NCBI GenBank assembly: GCA_035478435.1
Contig: DATIJT010000022.1
Span: 27,878 to 59,877, forward strand
Reading direction: 5' to 3'
Source: Candidatus Saccharimonadales bacterium
Lineage (GTDB): Bacteria > Patescibacteriota > Saccharimonadia > Saccharimonadales > UBA4665
DNA: 32,000 nucleotides
The notes under the pieces are model-generated. The model was not told the DNA's origin. It did no database searches and saw only the letters and a list, made by a program, of their open reading frames with translations. The position numbers were made by a program, and so were the translations under genes. Shown piece by piece: positions 7,999 through 29,538 of this stretch (the stretch's first letter is position 1; the number at the start of each line of letters is the position of its first letter).

Positions 7999-8097
7999 GA
8001 TGTCGTCCCAGCGAAAGCTGGGATCCAGTAAGACAATAAGGAATTTCCAATTTTGACTAGATTCCCGCCTTCGCGGGAATGACAGGATGTTGACATC
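7999..8097. repeat. composite double-hairpin element (E0)
   Basis: GATGTC (7999-8004) pairs with GACATC (8092-8097). This encloses TCCCAGC-GAAA-GCTGGGA (8006-8023) and ATTCCCGC-CTTC-GCGGGAAT (8061-8080). Confidence 0.7.
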
Positions 8098-8153: not shown

Positions 8154-8789
8154 ATGATTAGTAGTTTTGGGAAAGATATGGACTCTTTCCGGCGGTCTGC
8201 TTTGGAATCTATGACTGACAAGTTTATGGCTGCCGAGCCTGGCTCCCGAACTGAGTTTGAGCTTTCCTGTAGTGCTGTTACTAGTATTACTTCGGCATTG
8301 AGCTCCAGGGATCGCTACCTTTTCGCCCTTTATGGCCGTGAAGTAGCTGAAGACCCAGCTAAAGTCGTGCCTGAATACGACGACTTGGAAGCAACAGTTA
8401 GAAAGTGCTTAGGCCAGCCCGGCCTGATACACGAGGCCAGCGGGTTGGTCCGTCTTGGTAGGTTAGCCGGGGAAATCGAATATGATTCCAGGATTGGCCG
8501 GGCAACTGGTGACCCCACTGGTTCGCTGACCGTACCTTTATCCAGTAGTTTTATGACTAAGGTAATTCACGGGCAATTAGTCCCCAGTATGACTTCCGCA
8601 AACATCGACCATAGCACCAGTCGAAAAACCATTGAAGAGGGCAGCACCAGAGTCGCAACCGGCGGCGGCCGCTACGAGCACGAAAGAGACAGACATGATT
8701 TACACGCCGGGCAAACTGCAGTCAGAAAATGGCTGGATGAAAATACCGTAGGCATAGGCAACATCCTGCGCTTGATGCTTGATAATTAA
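8154..8789 (+). CDS. hypothetical protein (orphan)
   Basis: 211-aa ORF with an adjacent promoter. No motif recognised. Confidence 0.5.
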   Translation: MISSFGKDMDSFRRSALESMTDKFMAAEPGSRTEFELSCSAVTSITSALSSRDRYLFALYGREVAEDPAKVVPEYDDLEATVRKCLGQPGLIHEASGLVRLGRLAGEIEYDSRIGRATGDPTGSLTVPLSSSFMTKVIHGQLVPSMTSANIDHSTSRKTIEEGSTRVATGGGRYEHERDRHDLHAGQTAVRKWLDENTVGIGNILRLMLDN

Positions 8790-11646: not shown

Positions 11647-12090
11647 TTACTTAAGTCTTTTAACTATATCGGCAGCTTTGCCACGAAGCGGAATAGGATT
11701 CATACCAATTATTTCTTCTAAGAAAGCTGATTCACTAGGCATGTCGTTTAGGATAAAAATCGGTTTGTTGAGGTAAAAAGCCAGCGCCATTTCCATCAGC
11801 ACATTGCCGCCGATGTAGTTTGGTTTCCCGTGCTTTTCATGGTTGAGCACCAATATGGCGTCGCCTTTAGCGACTTCATCAAAATGGCCGCTCATCAGCG
11901 CCGTCTTTTTGTGGTAATCGCCGGCATCGCCAAACCAGGTTTTGTAATGGCCAACATCGTAGTCATCGGCCGCTTCCATGCGCAATGCCGTTGCTGGCAC
12001 AATGACTTTATAGCCCAGGCTCTCAAGTTGTTCTTTTAATTCTATTGCCTGTTTGTAAAAATTAGCGCTCGAACAAATGGTGATGGTCAT
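11647..12090 (-). CDS. nucleoside 2-deoxyribosyltransferase-like Rossmann-fold protein (tentative)
   Basis: Start taken at MTITICSS (12090) because TATAAT lies 7 nt upstream; the longer ORF to 12138 would include that promoter. The C-terminal YIGGNVLMEMALAFYLNKPIF block resembles that family. Confidence 0.4.
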   Translation of the reverse strand: MTITICSSANFYKQAIELKEQLESLGYKVIVPATALRMEAADDYDVGHYKTWFGDAGDYHKKTALMSGHFDEVAKGDAILVLNHEKHGKPNYIGGNVLMEMALAFYLNKPIFILNDMPSESAFLEEIIGMNPIPLRGKAADIVKRLK

Positions 12091-12162
12091 GGCAATTATT
12101 ATACTAGCTAGGTTCATCAAACCTAGAAAGCCATCCACGTATTTTCAGTTAATATTTAAAGT

Positions 12163-12329
12163 TATAGCAACCCCAAAACAAAACGTGTCTTTTCCAGCCT
12201 GATGGATCAGTGAGTCAGAAACTGTCATTTCCGAGTGAGGCATATCTATAGATACGTTGAGTGAGGAATGACAGTTTCTGACTGCTGAGGCGCGGGCTGG
12301 AATGTGCGTTTTGTTTTGGGGTTGCTATA
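12163..12329. repeat. 167-nt long hairpin element (E1)
   Basis: Perfect 23-bp outer helix 12163-12185 / 12307-12329. Perfect 8-bp helix 12192-12199 / 12295-12302. Perfect 16-bp helix 12214-12229 / 12267-12282. Apical palindrome ATCTATAGAT flanked by direct GAGTGAGG copies (12233-12240, 12259-12266). Confidence 0.9.
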
Positions 12330-12347
12330 TGTCTGTATAATTACCAT

Positions 12348-12944
12348 ATGTCTGAACGGTGTTACTTAACCATACTGGGATTACCAGCGGTAGGTAAATC
12401 TTCGGTGGCTAAACATGTAGCCTCTACTTTAGGCTTTAGCGTAGCTAGTAGCGGTGAGGTACTACGAACCCTGGCTGCCGAAAGGGGGCAAGCTTTAGAA
12501 AAGCGAAGCGATTACGCTAGCTTCCAGCGACAGGTGAGACACGATTTAGGAGAAACGGCTCTTATAGACATGTTGCTAGCCACTCCTGGCGATGGCCTTG
12601 TGATTGACTCTGTGCGCAACATTGGTGACTACATCCGCTTCAAGCAAGTGGGTGGCCAATCTATCGCCCTATTTTGTGATCCAAGGATCAGCTATGGCTT
12701 TGCCAGCAAGCGCCGTGATATTAAAGATTCTATCGGTACCGAGGAAGAATTCGTCGCGGCTTGCCGGGCTGAATATCACGAAACTTTGCCTAACGGCCAG
12801 ACCGATCCCTATGGATTACATACTTATACAATCATGTTAAATGCTGATCATATCATCCCAGCCGACGTTTCACTGGGTGTCGTCAAGAAAGAAGTTATGG
12901 CCGTCATAGAACAGCACGTTCTTAAGCTACCACTTGATACCTAG
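12348..12944 (+). CDS. P-loop nucleotide kinase-like protein
   Basis: Walker A GLPAVGKSS near the N-terminus. The 198-aa size fits small NMP/nucleoside kinases, but the specific family is not recognised. Confidence 0.45.
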   Translation: MSERCYLTILGLPAVGKSSVAKHVASTLGFSVASSGEVLRTLAAERGQALEKRSDYASFQRQVRHDLGETALIDMLLATPGDGLVIDSVRNIGDYIRFKQVGGQSIALFCDPRISYGFASKRRDIKDSIGTEEEFVAACRAEYHETLPNGQTDPYGLHTYTIMLNADHIIPADVSLGVVKKEVMAVIEQHVLKLPLDT

Positions 12945-12995
12945 CCAACAGATGTAAATCGTGTTATATTTGCCTGAGCACTTAATCGTAAATGT

Positions 12996-13163
12996 CGCAA
13001 CGCACGCATTTGGATGCTGGACTAGGCGCTTACGAGAAGCGTAGCGAAATGTATTTAACATACATAGAGCGAGCATCGGAGTAAGCAACAACGTCCAGCG
13101 CCAAAAGCATCAGCAGAGTCGTCAGCTCTGCTGGCGAGCAGGCTGATGCGATGCGTGCGTTAC
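12996..13163 (+). repeat. ~168-nt branched hairpin element (E3) abutting the 5' end of tRNA-Met
   Basis: 11-bp closing helix 12999-13009 / 13151-13161 encloses hairpin A (13016-13099, with 7-, 6- and 6-bp helices) and hairpin B (13107-13149, 8-bp helices). Confidence 0.8.
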
Positions 13164-13239
13164 GCCAGGGTAGCTCAGTGGTTAGAGCACAGGACTCATA
13201 AGCCTGGGGTCGTGAGTTCAAATCTCACCCCTGGTACCA
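13164..13239 (+). tRNA. tRNA-Met (CAU), elongator type, CCA encoded
   Basis: Cloverleaf: acceptor GCCAGGG/CCCTGGT, D arm GCTC..GAGC, anticodon loop CTCATAA, T arm GTGAG-TTCAAAT-CTCAC, ACCA tail. The GAGCAC...GGGGTC pattern resembles elongator tRNA-Met. Confidence 0.9.
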
Positions 13240-13300: not shown

Positions 13301-14143
13301 ATGAACTTCTTATTCCCGCTTGCAACTATCGTTAGCTGGAGTATAGCTACAATCCTAGATAAGCTTAACTATACCCGTAATCGGATTGCTCCTAAGCAAC
13401 TGATGCTAATAGTATTTACGGGCATGTCGCTTTCGCTGGCTTTGTATATTGTCATCACCCACAAACCTTTCCCAAACTTTTCGCCGGTCGCGCTGGGCCT
13501 ATTAGGCTTAATCGGTCTCATTTCTTTCTTAGGCAACGTCTTTGACTACTTTAGCCTTAAGGCCAACGATTTACCACTAAGAGAGCCTATCGTGGATTTC
13601 GAGCCTATCTGGGCAGGTTTAGTCGGCTACGCTTTTCTGCCCAGTGAGCGTAAACCCGCTTATTTGGTGATTTTTGCTTTGGGCGCTCTTATTCTTTATA
13701 TCGGCATGCATCGAATAAAGCTGCGTCGGTTGCAGAAGGAGGGAGTATGGTACCTGCTGCTTTCGACGTTTTTCTACGGCCTGTTGCCGGTTATATACAA
13801 GCACGCCCTAAACTACCTCAGCCCAGAGTACATTAGCCTATTCCGCGTAGTCGCTATCTTGCTCCTTTGTAGCATATTCTTGCACGGCAAAAAATCCCGT
13901 AGCCACTCACTCAGCAAGGTCACTTACGGCTTGTCATCGGGAGCGATAGCCGCCGTTGGAGCAGTGGCCAATTTATATGCTATCCAATACTTAGGCGTAG
14001 TTGTAACTATGCTTTTCTTGGCGACCGGGCCGGCGCTGCGTTACCTGGCAAGCTACTTCATTTTGAGCGAAAAAGTCCGTCGCGTAGAAGTTATGTCCAG
14101 CTTTCTGCTGATAGCCGTTGTTTTGGTCGGTGTTGCTATATAA
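13301..14143 (+). CDS. EamA/DMT-family transporter-like membrane protein
   Basis: 280 aa with about 10 TM segments in two similar halves, typical of drug/metabolite transporter architecture. Confidence 0.55.
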   Translation: MNFLFPLATIVSWSIATILDKLNYTRNRIAPKQLMLIVFTGMSLSLALYIVITHKPFPNFSPVALGLLGLIGLISFLGNVFDYFSLKANDLPLREPIVDFEPIWAGLVGYAFLPSERKPAYLVIFALGALILYIGMHRIKLRRLQKEGVWYLLLSTFFYGLLPVIYKHALNYLSPEYISLFRVVAILLLCSIFLHGKKSRSHSLSKVTYGLSSGAIAAVGAVANLYAIQYLGVVVTMLFLATGPALRYLASYFILSEKVRRVEVMSSFLLIAVVLVGVAI

Positions 14144-14219: not shown

Positions 14220-14261
14220 ATAAGCCTGAGGTTGCGAGTTCGAGTCTCACCCCTGGTACCA
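14220..14261 (+). pseudogene. tRNA-Met 3'-half fragment (anticodon-loop to CCA), diverged copy
   Basis: ATAAGCCTGAGGTTGCGAGTTCGAGTCTCACCCCTGGTACCA aligns to 13198-13239 of the intact tRNA with 5 mismatches. No matching 5' half lies upstream, and the T stem carries a C-A mismatch. Confidence 0.75.
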
Positions 14262-14273
14262 AAAACCTGAAGA

Positions 14274-20453: not shown

Positions 20454-20502
20454 CTTAAGCACTACTTGCGAAAGGGCTTACAGCTATAAATGAAGTCTTA
20501 CT

Positions 20503-20538
20503 AATAAGAAAACCGCCCCCGGAGATTTCCAGAGGCGG
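20503..20538 (-). terminator. intrinsic terminator readable on the minus strand
   Basis: 10-bp stem 20513-20522 / 20529-20538. On the minus strand it contains two G-U pairs that would be A-C mismatches on the plus strand. It is followed on the minus strand by TTTTCTTATT. Confidence 0.6.
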
Positions 20539-20685
20539 CTAAGGTATTCCGCCTACTTAGGCAGGCGAACAATCAGAAGGGGGTCAGGTGACGCGTACCT
20601 CCCACGCCACAGTAATATCACTGGCCTGCCCGTTAGATCTAGGACTTCGCAATTTGGATTACCCCCTTTCTGTTTTTAGTTTCTA
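20503..20685 (-). ncRNA. candidate ~170-180 nt small RNA of unknown class
   Basis: Minus-strand TATAAT (plus 20690-20695) upstream and the terminator at 20503-20538 downstream. Internal long-range helix 20574-20584 / 20661-20672. No ORF. Confidence 0.35.
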
Positions 20686-20754
20686 ATTACATTATAGCGC
20701 CTTTGTCCAGACTTAAATTAAGCTGTATGATAGAAGCATAAATTAAGGGGCGAT

Positions 20755-23439: not shown

Positions 23440-23515
23440 TGGTGGGGGTGGATGGAGTTGAACCATCTACCAAGCGGTTATGAGCCGCCTGCTCTGACCG
23501 ATGAGCTACACCCCC
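23440..23515 (-). tRNA. tRNA with CAU anticodon, probably tRNA-Ile2 (lysidine-modified), CCA encoded
   Basis: Reverse complement folds as acceptor GGGGGTG/CACCCCC, anticodon loop CTCATAA, T arm GATGG-TTCAACT-CCATC. The anticodon arm GCAGGCGGCTCATAACCGCTTGGT closely resembles E. coli ileX as I recall it. Confidence 0.85.
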
Positions 23516-23709: not shown

Positions 23710-24168
23710 ATGCAAAACAAACTTAAACATTACGCTAAAGTGGCTGCTGCTTATGGGTTGCAGCTCAAAGATCCCAAGTATATTGGGCAGCTATTGTTTT
23801 TGGTAATTGTATTGCTCATAAGTTGGAGCGGCGTCAAAGCCATTCAGACTAATTACGGATTGCAAAAACGCATCTCGGCCTTAGAACAACAAAATGCCGT
23901 TAAAAAGCTGGAGAATGCGAATTTGAACCTTCAGAACGAATACTACAATACCGACCAGTACTTGGAGTTATCAGCCCGACAGAACTTCGGTTTGGCGGCC
24001 CCAGGTGAAAAAGAGATAGTGGTACCCGAAAACGTAGCTTTGGCCTACACCGTGGACTTAGCCCAGCCTACCAAACCAGCCACGCCTACCAGCAAGCAAC
24101 CAGTCTACCAACGCAATTTTGAAGCCTGGGTCAACTTTTTCCTCCACCGCCCAGTAAGCGGTGATTAA
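23710..24168 (+). CDS. septum formation initiator family protein (FtsB/DivIC-like)
   Basis: Single N-terminal TM segment, a coiled-coil (LQKRISALEQQNAVKKLENANLNLQNE), then YLELSARQNFGLAAPGEKEIVV, typical of the FtsB/DivIC family. Confidence 0.7.
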   Translation: MQNKLKHYAKVAAAYGLQLKDPKYIGQLLFLVIVLLISWSGVKAIQTNYGLQKRISALEQQNAVKKLENANLNLQNEYYNTDQYLELSARQNFGLAAPGEKEIVVPENVALAYTVDLAQPTKPATPTSKQPVYQRNFEAWVNFFLHRPVSGD

Positions 24169-24192
24169 TTTTGACGATCGTCAAAATTAATC
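24163..24192. promoter_or_regulatory. perfect 30-bp palindrome GATTAATTTTGACGA|TCGTCAAAATTAATC
   Basis: 15+15 nt with perfect dyad symmetry. Overlaps the stop codon at 24166-24168 and lies 37 bp upstream of the -35 of the tRNA-fMet promoter. Confidence 0.6.
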
Positions 24193-24350: not shown

Positions 24351-24425
24351 CGCGGGGTGGAGCAGCGGCAGCTCGCGTGGCTCATAACCACGAGGTCACA
24401 GGTTCGAGTCCTGTCCCCGCAACCA
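24351..24425 (+). tRNA. initiator tRNA-fMet (CAU), CCA encoded
   Basis: Starts CGCGGGG and ends CCCCGCAACCA, giving the C1-A72 mismatch typical of bacterial initiators. Anticodon loop CTCATAA. T arm ACAGG-TTCGAGT-CCTGT. Confidence 0.92.
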
Positions 24426-26762: not shown

Positions 26763-26927
26763 AGGATCTATCACAAACCTCACCTTCGTTAAGCGAAAGC
26801 CTTAATGGCGATAGCGAAACTGTCAGCAGGCGAACGAGGCGTACCTTTAGGTACGGTGAGGAGCGGTCTAACAGTTGCAGCCCGCCATTAGGGCTTGAGG
26901 CTGAAGGTGAGGTTTGTGATAGATCCT
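26763..26927. repeat. 165-nt long hairpin element (E2)
   Basis: Perfect 24-bp outer helix 26764-26787 / 26903-26926. 12-bp helix 26799-26810 / 26883-26894 with one G-U pair. Imperfect helix containing GAAACTGTCA. Apical CGTACC-TTTA-GGTACG. Confidence 0.9.
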
Positions 26928-28388: not shown

Positions 28389-29149
28389 TAGTCACGTAAT
28401 CCTTTCCCTGTTAAATCGATGAAAACGTCTTCCAAATTGGCCTGTTCAACTTCCTGCTCTTTCTTAAAGCCTTTTTTGAGTAGTTGGCGGATGAGGTTCT
28501 TAGGCGTGTCAAGGGCGATGATTTTACCCTTGTCCATAATGGCCACCCGGTCGCACAACAGTTCGGCTTCATCCATGTAATGGGTAGTTATAAGCACCGT
28601 GACGCCTTTGTCGCGCACCTGCTGCACCAAATCCCAGAGGTTGCGCCGGGCTTGGGGGTCCAGGCCGGTAGTCGGCTCGTCCATGAAAAAGACTTTGGGG
28701 CTGTGGACTAAGGCCGCGGCAATGCTCAGACGTTGGCGTTGGCCGCCAGACAGGTTTTCGGCGAAACTGTTAGCCTTTTCATCCAGCTGGACTTCTTTTA
28801 AGAATTCTAAGGGGCTGACCTTCTCACCATAGGCAGCTGCAAAGAGCTCGATTAGCTCAGTTAACTTAGTTTTATCCTGAAAAGCCGGAGATTGCGGCTG
28901 GACGCCAATAATCCGCTTAACGGCATCCGACTGCTTGGCTACATCCAGGCCGTTTACCATGATCGTGCCGCCATCTATAGAGCGCATTGTTTCAATCATT
29001 TCCAGGGTAGTAGTCTTGCCAGCGCCGTTCGGCCCTAAAATGCCAAAAATCTCGCCTTTTTTGACTTCAAAGGAAATGCCATCCACAGCCGGCTTGTTGT
29101 CGTAGACTTTCCGCAAACCTTTAACTTTTAAGATTATATCCGTATCCAT
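28388..29149 (-). CDS. ABC transporter ATP-binding protein
   Basis: Start taken at MDTDIILKV. Walker A GPNGAGKTT, signature LSGGQRQRL, Walker B VFFMDEPTTGLD, H-loop TTHYM. The upstream 57 codons of the tracked ORF cross hairpin element E4 and are rejected. Confidence 0.9.
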   Translation of the reverse strand: MDTDIILKVKGLRKVYDNKPAVDGISFEVKKGEIFGILGPNGAGKTTTLEMIETMRSIDGGTIMVNGLDVAKQSDAVKRIIGVQPQSPAFQDKTKLTELIELFAAAYGEKVSPLEFLKEVQLDEKANSFAENLSGGQRQRLSIAAALVHSPKVFFMDEPTTGLDPQARRNLWDLVQQVRDKGVTVLITTHYMDEAELLCDRVAIMDKGKIIALDTPKNLIRQLLKKGFKKEQEVEQANLEDVFIDLTGKGLRD

Positions 29150-29223
29150 ACCCGACCATTCTACCAGAGCCACGGATATAAATAAAAACACCCGCCAAAA
29201 ATGACAGGCGTTTTTAATGGGTA

Positions 29224-29342
29224 CGGGTTTTGTGTAGGAGTACAGTTTGGTTGAAGGTCGAGTAACGAAGCGCAGCGTACTTTGTGGTACGCGAGCATCG
29301 TAACGGAGAGCTTCGGGCAAAATGTGCCCTACACGAAAGCCG
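29224..29342. repeat. ~119-nt hairpin element (E4), related to E3
   Basis: Outer pairing TTTTGTGTAGG (29228-29238) with CCTACACGAAA (29328-29338), including a G-U pair. Apical CGTAC-TTTGTG-GTACG. Shares GCGAGCATCG (29291-29300) and AAGCG(C/T)AGCG with E3. Confidence 0.75.
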
Positions 29343-29343
29343 C

Positions 29344-29538
29344 TTACTTGCGCTTAACGGTCAAAAAGCCGTTGCGTGGGTTTTCGTTAACCATAAAACC
29401 ATCTGGCAGGTCAGTAGCTTCAGGACGCTCGTCCTTGCTGAAGTAGTAAATAGTTTGCTGTTTGCCACCACGAAGTGTGACCATTTTTGAGTTTAAATAG
29501 TAAGTTACACCTTTGGAGTTAGTGTGCTTGTATGCCAT
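29344..29538 (-). CDS. small conserved-looking hypothetical protein (64 aa)
   Basis: Start taken at MAYKHTNSKG, which has GAGGGAG upstream. The longer ORF to 29607 lacks an SD. Confidence 0.55.
   Translation of the reverse strand: MAYKHTNSKGVTYYLNSKMVTLRGGKQQTIYYFSKDERPEATDLPDGFMVNENPRNGFLTVKRK

Follow-up and report, generated by a model that had tools for sequence, protein, structure and literature searches.

Long strand-specific hairpins between the genes of a Saccharimonadales genome, possibly REP-like palindromic repeat insertions

A 32,000-nt stretch of a Candidatus Saccharimonadales genome (assembly GCA_035478435.1, contig DATIJT010000022.1, positions 27,878 to 59,877 of the forward strand; hereafter the window) carries five long hairpin elements between its genes, E0 to E4, with the 167-nt E1 as type example. 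Two more, E5 and E6, lie outside the window in the same genome. The intergenic hairpins of ~165 nt are real and fold far more strongly than chance would allow. Copying of a 133-nt hairpin unit links the E2 and E5 loci, and E4 at least is extra DNA relative to the nearest relative. We read the hairpins as non-autonomous palindromic repeat insertions of the REP, REPIN, ERIC or YPAL kind, which would have built up within this single Saccharimonadales lineage, would fold as strand-specific single strands and would partly be co-transcribed with their neighbours. We see the case for and against this reading as about evenly balanced.

Hairpins and their sequence groups

Sequence beyond the window was taken from contig CAZFBH010000003.1 (GCA_964517285.1, a metagenome-assembled genome of 'Candidatus Saccharimonadales'), which carries the window. 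In all, 58 kb of this 168.75-kb contig were examined, window included, and the copy numbers below refer to this stretch. The extra sequence holding E5 and E6 is cited by its coordinate label, L007. Four genomes provided a further ~79 kb from relatives, among which the closest FtsH is 84% identical and the nearest relative is labelled L031. The extra sequence and the relatives were scanned by local folding with RNALfold, with a covariance model (R1) built from E1, E2 and E5, and for TGTC units, defined as TGTC plus an 8-9-bp stem, a 4-5-nt loop and CCA.

Folding across the whole window gave a background of -42.6 +/- 10 kcal/mol for 170-nt segments, and its four deepest minima are the four large elements. 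E1 (-98.8 kcal/mol, z-score -13.7) and E2 (-96.0 kcal/mol, z -11.5) lie more than 5 standard deviations off this background. E3 folds with -81.5 kcal/mol (z -8.4) and E4 with about -65 kcal/mol (z -9.2). The fold of E0 is weaker (-39.7 kcal/mol, z -4.3). All five hairpins listed in the initial annotation were found at their positions, and none overlaps a credible coding sequence, as had been stated there. E4 is touched only by a TTG-extended open reading frame (ORF); the called ABC gene nearby starts at 29149. With lengths of 99-168 nt, no credible ORF and minimum free energy (MFE) z-scores from -4 to -14, the elements agree in size, coding status and stem-loop folding with bacterial miniature inverted-repeat transposable elements (MITEs).

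E1 (12163-12329; + is the stable strand; 121 bits with model R1) fills the spacer between two divergent genes, a 147-aa ORF starting at 12090 (-) and a kinase-like ORF starting at 12348 (+). The 5' arm of its outer stem (12163-12185, +) pairs perfectly with 12307-12329. This 23-bp helix and an 8-bp helix had been described correctly, but the perfect inner helix (12213-12229 with 12267-12283) measures 17 bp and not 16. A weaker dyad symmetry extends to 12148 and 12344, giving 38-nt arms that are 82% complementary with the inner 23 bp perfect, and this outward symmetry covers the TATAAT (12336-12341) of the kinase gene. The inner module (12213-12283, +) is bounded by the 17-bp helix, which contains TGTC (12222-12225) and its complement GACA (12271-12274). 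Within that helix are found a purine-rich helix with tandem G.A and an apical hairpin with the loop TATA (12247-12250).

E2 (26763-26927, +; 165 nt; 182.6 bits with R1) is likewise confirmed as lying in a divergent spacer. It separates pyrF (-), whose -35-like TTGTGA is within the 5' arm of E2, from small + strand ORFs. The perfect outer helix is there, with 25 bp instead of the 24 first counted. The RNALfold scan outside the window found E5 (L007 5241-5400), between Sua5 and a NUDIX gene, and E6 (L007 3220-3368), between convergent genes. The 133-nt core of E2 (26779-26911, +) is 82% identical to the core of E5 (L007 5258-5390, opposite genomic strand; blastn E 1e-34), although the two loci are 9 kb apart and oppositely oriented. 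The homology ends symmetrically about the hairpin axis, 16 nt inside each E2 end, and the outermost stems are unrelated. One stem segment of E5 looked flipped relative to E2 (TGTTGT versus ACAAAC); as no inversion model fits, it was treated as non-homology.

E1 is related to E2 and E5, but more distantly than these two are to each other. The local alignment of the 3' halves of E1 and E2 scores 16, against 7.7 +/- 1.3 in shuffled sequences (0/1000), and GAAACTGTCA, already reported as common to E1 (12218) and E2 (26816), is expected with 0.04 matches by chance. The outer stems had been said to share no sequence. This holds for the outermost 15-16 bp of E2 and E5, which are non-homologous, but E1 and E2 share GAAkGTGnGkTTTGT, which reaches into the outer stem; the copy-specificity of outer stems refers to the three type-A copies sampled. 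Model R1 matches only these three copies in 130 kb.

E3 (12996-13163, +) is a compound hairpin with a 13-bp outer stem around E3a (13010-13106) and E3b (13107-13150). The 119-nt E4 (29224-29342, +) separates a small - strand gene, with its stop codon at 29344, from the terminator of that gene (29216-29183). As first observed, GCGAGCATCG and AAGCGYAGCG occur in E3 and E4 only. The resemblance of E3a and E4 is marginal (p about 0.03 per half) and includes the two-strand motif GA-A-GC-GYA-GC ... GC-GA-GC-A-UC; that of E0 and E6 has p about 0.015. The elements had been presented as a single family, which is not demonstrable. Sequence comparison instead divides them into at least three groups: A (E1, E2, E5), B (E3a, E4) and C (E0, E6), with no significant similarity between A and B.

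Group C points directly to REP elements. E0 (7999-8097, no strand assigned) is a head-to-head dimer of two TGTC-tagged units. Unit 1 (8001-8027, +) reads TGTC GTCCCAGC GAAA GCTGGGAT CCA and unit 2 (8058-8084, -) reads TGTC ATTCCCGC GAAG GCGGGAAT CTA. The E6 units also carry TGTC tags, with stems ATCCCGAA and ATGCTGAA, loops TTTAT and CTTGT, and CCA tails in both. Across E0 and E6, the 8-bp stems start with AT (GT in one), the loops have 4-5 nt, the tags are outermost and the tails face each other. These two dimers account for the four TGTC units of the 58 kb. In the published CGTC superfamily of REPs, one end of the unit carries an unpaired terminal tag, CGTC or often TGTC, with CCTC as another variant. 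The stem of 8-9 bp has complementary A-T in its first two positions, the loop measures 4-5 nt, the short tail is CCA, and most copies are head-head dimers (PMC3733652). Judged by this anatomy, E0 and E6 qualify as canonical head-to-head dimers of TGTC-tagged REP units matching that definition.

The type-A elements have these tags as well, inverted as TGTC...GACA on the two sides of a purine-rich apical module. The inner module of E1 begins with TGTCATTTCC, resembling unit 2 of E0 (TGTCATTCCC). In E1 the TGTC (12222) and the GACA (12271) pair with each other, whereas the tags of E0 and E6 are outermost. The terminator loop beside E4 (29183-29216, -) has CTGTCATTT, the same heptamer-plus that starts the E1 inner module and unit 2 of E0; this may be chance or a remnant tag.

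Strand-specific pairing and transcription

In E1, E2 and E5 taken together, the homologous strand is always the more stable one, with 15 G-U pairs against 5. For E1, the MFE is -98.8 on the + strand and -84.9 on the - strand (9 G-U pairs versus 1). The sense strands of E2 and E5 reach -96.0 versus -89.1 and -69.2 versus -50.8, respectively. E4 behaves similarly, with -64.2 on + and -40.7 on - (5 G-U pairs versus 0). Between the stems of E2 and E5 we count three double compensatory changes and five single changes, all of which pass via G.U on the sense strand; there are 0 A.C juxtapositions and three broken pairs. Differences affect 24% of the unpaired and about 15% of the paired positions, and the core varies most at its apex. 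The purine-rich tracts can form tandem sheared G.A pairs, so that the sense strand would be a nearly continuous rod. This pairing pattern shows selection on a single-stranded hairpin and fits RNA and single-stranded DNA (ssDNA) alike.

The 5' end of a tRNA-Met gene (CAT anticodon; 13164-13239, +) lies 0-1 nt from E3, and a promoter-like site is found upstream of E3 at 12942-12970. Because the two are too close for a promoter to fit in between, E3 must be in the leader of the tRNA-Met precursor.

These observations bear on the structured RNA family that the initial annotation had proposed as one option. Here the elements would be genes or cis-elements for rod-like RNAs whose conserved mid-stem internal loops and apical hairpin bind a protein and whose long basal duplex is an RNase III processing stem. 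The G-U bias and the substitution pattern are strand-specific, and it is the internal loops that keep their sequence on both strands, not the helices. The three type-A copies share the orientation of the downstream gene, E3 is necessarily transcribed with tRNA-Met, and AT-rich hexamers that precede the hairpin bases by ~7 nt in E1, E2 and E4 add a weak hint. However, REPINs show the same compensatory change: they are reported to form hairpins 'in ssDNA or mRNA' and to undergo compensatory changes commonly (PMC3116915). The perfect Watson-Crick outer stems of 23-25 bp are unlike the products of slow compensatory evolution. Moreover, the elements occur neither in relatives whose FtsH is 84% identical nor in any of the collections scanned, the genes beside them have unrelated functions, and the hairpins have no terminators after them. 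E4 raises an additional difficulty. It sits in the 3' untranslated region (UTR) of an mRNA to which its stable strand is antisense, and this argues against a simple mRNA-level function for E4 and fits an orientation set by the element itself. Overall, we consider a structured RNA family unlikely, if still a serious competitor.

Known RNAs were also looked for. The Rfam cmscan that had been suggested as a check gave no known RNA for the elements, with only three tRNA-Met genes at gathering score, and at E-values up to 10 the elements gave only spurious miRNA-like hairpin matches. 6S, SRP and Y RNA have no Rfam support. A hairpin ribozyme was considered as UGACAGU resembles its substrate strand, but the helix is fully paired and there is no loop A. 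A K-turn was rejected for its wrong bulge geometry, as read from the sequence.

Insertion sites, neighbouring genes and origin

Seven elements lie in 58 kb of this genome. RNALfold, covariance model and TGTC-unit scans found no comparable hairpin or TGTC unit in the ~79 kb from the four relatives. In the nearest relative, L031, the gene order around E4, E5 and E6 is kept and all three hairpins are missing. At the E4 site, the upstream gene is ~88% identical as far as its stop codon, and the terminator is conserved in its 3' half and T-tract. The only extra segment is the hairpin, ~100 bases with the outer stem included. The proposed insertion into pre-existing palindromes finds no support at this site, where the relative has no palindrome at the insertion point. 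For E1 and E3, no counterpart site was found in the relatives retrieved via FtsH, where the common block is only tilS-ftsH-murJ-lepA. An IS66-like GTAAGCG end at E4 proved to be merely the hairpin base plus the stop codon.

True copies were found neither in GTDB representatives nor in JGI metagenomes, IMG/VR, plasmids or phages. Scanning GTDB with a 21-mer yielded a single chance match, in a high-GC actinomycete. In JGI metagenomes, a 22-mer gave 0 matches and a structure-aware pattern two chance matches, and all IMG/VR matches are chance ones in coding sequence. The blastn search against plasmids and phages gave no match. The idea that the outer stems are phage-derived spacers or guides was dropped, since the E2 arm has 0 phage matches and the E1 arm one chance 19-mer. 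Logan contigs of SRR9179560 and SRR9179562 (L013, L015, L016) belong to the same strain and do not differ from the window in sequence; these short-read de Bruijn assemblies break inside E1 and E2.

E4, E5 and E6 begin 0-3 nt past stop codons, and closeness to ORF 3' ends is reported for uni- and conv-REPs (PMC3733652). E5 and E6 would lie in 3' UTRs. E1 and E2 are just upstream of, or overlap, the -35 positions of leaderless-looking genes. This leaderless look, with TATAAT or TATAGT 6-9 nt before ATG and no Shine-Dalgarno, is seen for the kinase-like gene (12336-12350), the 147-aa ORF (12090-12106) and the NUDIX gene (L007 5431-5448). No homologue was found of the kinase-like gene beside E1. 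The 147-aa neighbour was considered as a hidden Y1 transposase and has no Pfam match; its sequence gives the impression of a nucleoside deoxyribosyltransferase-type protein.

With E3, E4, E5 and E6 just downstream of stop codons, the hairpins could be intrinsic terminators or transcriptional insulators. Nevertheless, none has a T-run after it. Behind E4 comes a separate canonical terminator, also conserved in the relative, and the divergent-gene spacers that hold E0, E1 and E2 contain no 3' ends. A terminator function is thus highly improbable, the least probable of the explanations considered.

Five of the seven hairpins adjoin genes that have no syntenic counterpart in the nearest relatives (8154-8789, 12348-12944; L007 3382-4248, 5446-5991). 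These are a 211-aa ORF at E0, not found between ftsH and murJ in relatives, the orphan kinase-like gene flanked by E1 and E3, and two genes that are extra relative to L031, NUDIX with E5 and LssY_C with E6. Such neighbours would be expected if the hairpins were the boundaries of acquired gene cassettes, either attC-like recombination sites or entry hot spots. Strand-specific folding is a property of attC sites as well, and the C-terminus of Sua5 departs from that of the relative where the extended dyad symmetry of E5 begins. Yet the attC cores RYYYAAC / GTTRRRY were not found; the ends are TAGCAAC / GTTGCTA in E1 and CACAAAC / GTTTGTG in E2. There is no integrase in the 58 kb, genes occur in both orientations and mixed with essential genes, and E4 was inserted without an accompanying gene. 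The new junctions could simply be neutral landing space in a compact genome. We regard cassette boundaries as very unlikely.

Two loci deserve a separate mention. At E5, Sua5 ends with ..RQGSVKV*, shorter than the ..RQGAVQLDRGQVQ* of the relative, and a 14-nt direct repeat, AGTAAAAGTCTAAA / AGTAAAAGTCTTAA (L007 5232-5245 and 5271-5284), links the last codons and stop of Sua5 with a segment inside the E5 core. The E5 insertion seems to have replaced the 3' end of the Sua5 gene. At the ftsH-murJ junction, one relative has an 840-aa TraG/TrwB-like coupling-protein gene (L004 2904-5426). Extra DNA in more than one lineage suggests that this junction readily accepts insertions.

The perfect, locus-specific outer stems and the dyad symmetry that fades outward into the flanks of E1 and E5 could also come from palindrome-generating replication errors (template switching) on the spot, with elements that are neither mobile nor functional. 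Because of the E2-E5 homology, in which distant and oppositely oriented loci have a 133-nt core in common, local origin as the sole explanation is largely refuted and has little chance of being right. The motifs or REP units common to E0 and E6, E3a and E4, and E1 and E2, as well as substitutions that keep pairing, also speak against it. Template switching may still explain the outer stems.

In the palindromic repeat insertion reading that we prefer, the copied unit would be a single-stranded hairpin, with ssDNA favoured and an RNA intermediate possible. Copying of ssDNA could be performed by a tyrosine (HUH) transposase whose gene lies in another part of the genome, as proposed for REPINs. 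Only intergenic insertions would survive, many of them directly behind stop codons, and they would then be co-transcribed with their neighbours, E3 with tRNA-Met and E4, E5 and E6 in 3' UTRs. The near-continuous rods of 60-75 bp could be RNase III substrates or exonuclease barriers. As to the outer stems, they might be (a) subfamily termini beyond the 58 kb sampled, (b) the trace of insertion at a local dyad-symmetry axis, as for YPAL targets, which is unsupported at E4, or (c) the result of palindrome extension or correction by intrastrand template switching after insertion. Options (b) and (c) are favoured over ordinary gene conversion because the E2/E5 homology boundary is symmetric. A further explanation, which we find quite improbable, is an undescribed strand-specific hairpin element (RNA or ssDNA) whose ~133-nt core is copied and then gains a long, perfect and site-specific outer duplex, marking the entry points of lineage-specific genes. 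The outer duplex would then arise by insertion at a local dyad axis or by inverted copying of one flank.

Several results weigh against repeat insertions of the REP type. The TGTC-unit scan found no canonical REP unit in E1, E2, E3, E4 or E5. No RAYT (Y1), IS200-like or other transposase is present among the Pfam-annotated genes of the 58 kb, and likewise no reverse transcriptase or integrase; the initial annotation had reported no transposase or reverse transcriptase nearby. Conserved terminal inverted repeats, a MITE feature, are lacking, as the termini of E1, E2 and E5 differ, and so do the long perfect outer stems from copy to copy. There are no flanking direct repeats indicating target-site duplication at E1, E2, E4 or E5, where we see only a weak shared flank motif, AAGTY...RGTCT. 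Three of the seven elements (E0, E1, E2) occupy divergent-gene spacers, which is unusual for REPs. The internal-loop motif GC-GNA-(G)C opposite (G)C-GA-GC, found in E2/E5 and in E3a/E4, would suit a protein-binding RNA. Finally, the Logan contigs of the same strain show no strain-level presence/absence polymorphism.

Saccharimonadales and other candidate phyla radiation (CPR) bacteria have small, tightly packed genomes, in which a density of seven long palindromic repeats per 58 kb, with three in divergent promoter spacers, is a notable load. If the repeat reading is true genome-wide, it would extend tagged REP/REPIN-type elements to a CPR lineage and provide a case in which the core of a hairpin, and not its termini, is conserved and copied. 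The elements would also be markers of recent genome change, beside genes that the nearest relative lacks, and would explain the breaks of short-read assemblies at these sites. At present there is no evidence of a new class of RNA or of a new mobility mechanism.

The window has other features of interest. Three tRNA genes with CAT anticodon lie within 11 kb (13164-13239, 23440-23515 and 24351-24425); presumably they are initiator, elongator and tRNA-Ile2. The 3' half of a tRNA-Met-like gene (GGTTGCGAGTTCGAGTCTCACCCCTGGTACCA; 14230-14262) is located ~1 kb downstream of the intact tRNA-Met at 13164-13239. From the sequence, this pair around an EamA gene (13301-14143) looks like the att duplication of a small integrated island. 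A gene-free gap of 300 nt (20454-20754, -) contains several strong hairpins with a canonical terminator (CCGCCTCTGGAAATCTCCGGGGGCGGTTTTCTT) at its end, and has no meaningful Rfam match at E-values up to 5. This gap may encode a small RNA that has no relation to the hairpin elements. At 24163-24192, a perfect 30-bp palindrome without spacer, composed of GATTAATTTTGACGA and TCGTCAAAATTAATC, covers the last bases and stop of a DivIC-like gene (gene end 24168). Possible readings are an operator or an 'empty' region of dyad symmetry resembling the outer stems.

Comparison with known palindromic repeats

The initial annotation could not assign the elements to any class it knew. This is too strong, since stem-loop repeat families (REP/REPIN, ERIC, YPAL) fit. 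Its option of a nested MITE/REP-like element survives in its REP-like part, with the E0/E6 dimers, the E1 tags, the E4 insertion and the lineage specificity, but the classical MITE features of conserved terminal inverted repeats and target-site duplication are missing. A literature search for hairpins, MITEs or structured RNAs in Saccharibacteria or Patescibacteria found nothing relevant. To our knowledge, neither Saccharimonadales nor other CPR bacteria have been described before as hosts of CGTC REPs.

The Correia/NEMIS elements of Neisseria (~100-155 bp) are inserted near genes or promoters and give transcripts that form long hairpins cleaved by RNase III. They differ by a TA duplication and by terminal inverted repeats of 24 bp that are conserved; we looked for both features here and found neither. 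Bacterial MITEs in general are shorter than 200 bp and have terminal inverted repeats that are conserved among copies, with a target-site duplication that is often TA (PMC2229807).

REPINs (Bertels & Rainey 2011, PMC3116915) undergo compensatory changes that keep the hairpin, as in E2 and E5. In contrast, their left and right ends, like those of MITEs, are the most conserved parts and the spacer is variable, while in E2 and E5 the outermost 15-16 bp are the least conserved. REPIN genomes also have a cognate RAYT (Y1 transposase) gene with the repeats on its flanks, of which the 58 kb show none. E1 to E5 also depart from REPs and REPINs in that they are not composed of canonical 20-40-bp units.

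The CGTC/TGTC REPs (Di Nocera, De Gregorio & Rocco 2013, PMC3733652) are like E0 and E6 in anatomy, in being extragenic and in lying near ORF 3' ends, and their dimers, like E0 and E6, are able to fold into a single larger hairpin. These repeats are listed in 5 phyla, mostly in alpha-Proteobacteria (PMC3733652), and no transposase is known for them either. They are scattered over a genome in many copies, compared with the two dimers in the 58 kb here.

In length, the elements of 165-168 nt come close to the 168-bp YPAL/RU-2 of Yersinia; ERIC/IRU has 127 bp (Delihas 2008, PMC2229807). YPAL has internal inverted repeats and no AT-richness, and it targets sites that include or border on dyad symmetry (PMC2229807). 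The likeness is one of published properties, and it has limits: YPAL insertions have target-site duplications of 3-26 bp, none of which is seen here, and YPAL copies are highly similar genome-wide, while here only E2 and E5 are close. Nonetheless, YPAL and ERIC share with our elements a non-coding, intergenic nature, long RNA stem-loops and cotranscription with neighbours, the latter inferred in our case. The E1-type elements of ~165 nt stand outside the definitions of REP, REPIN and MITE, although they probably work like them.

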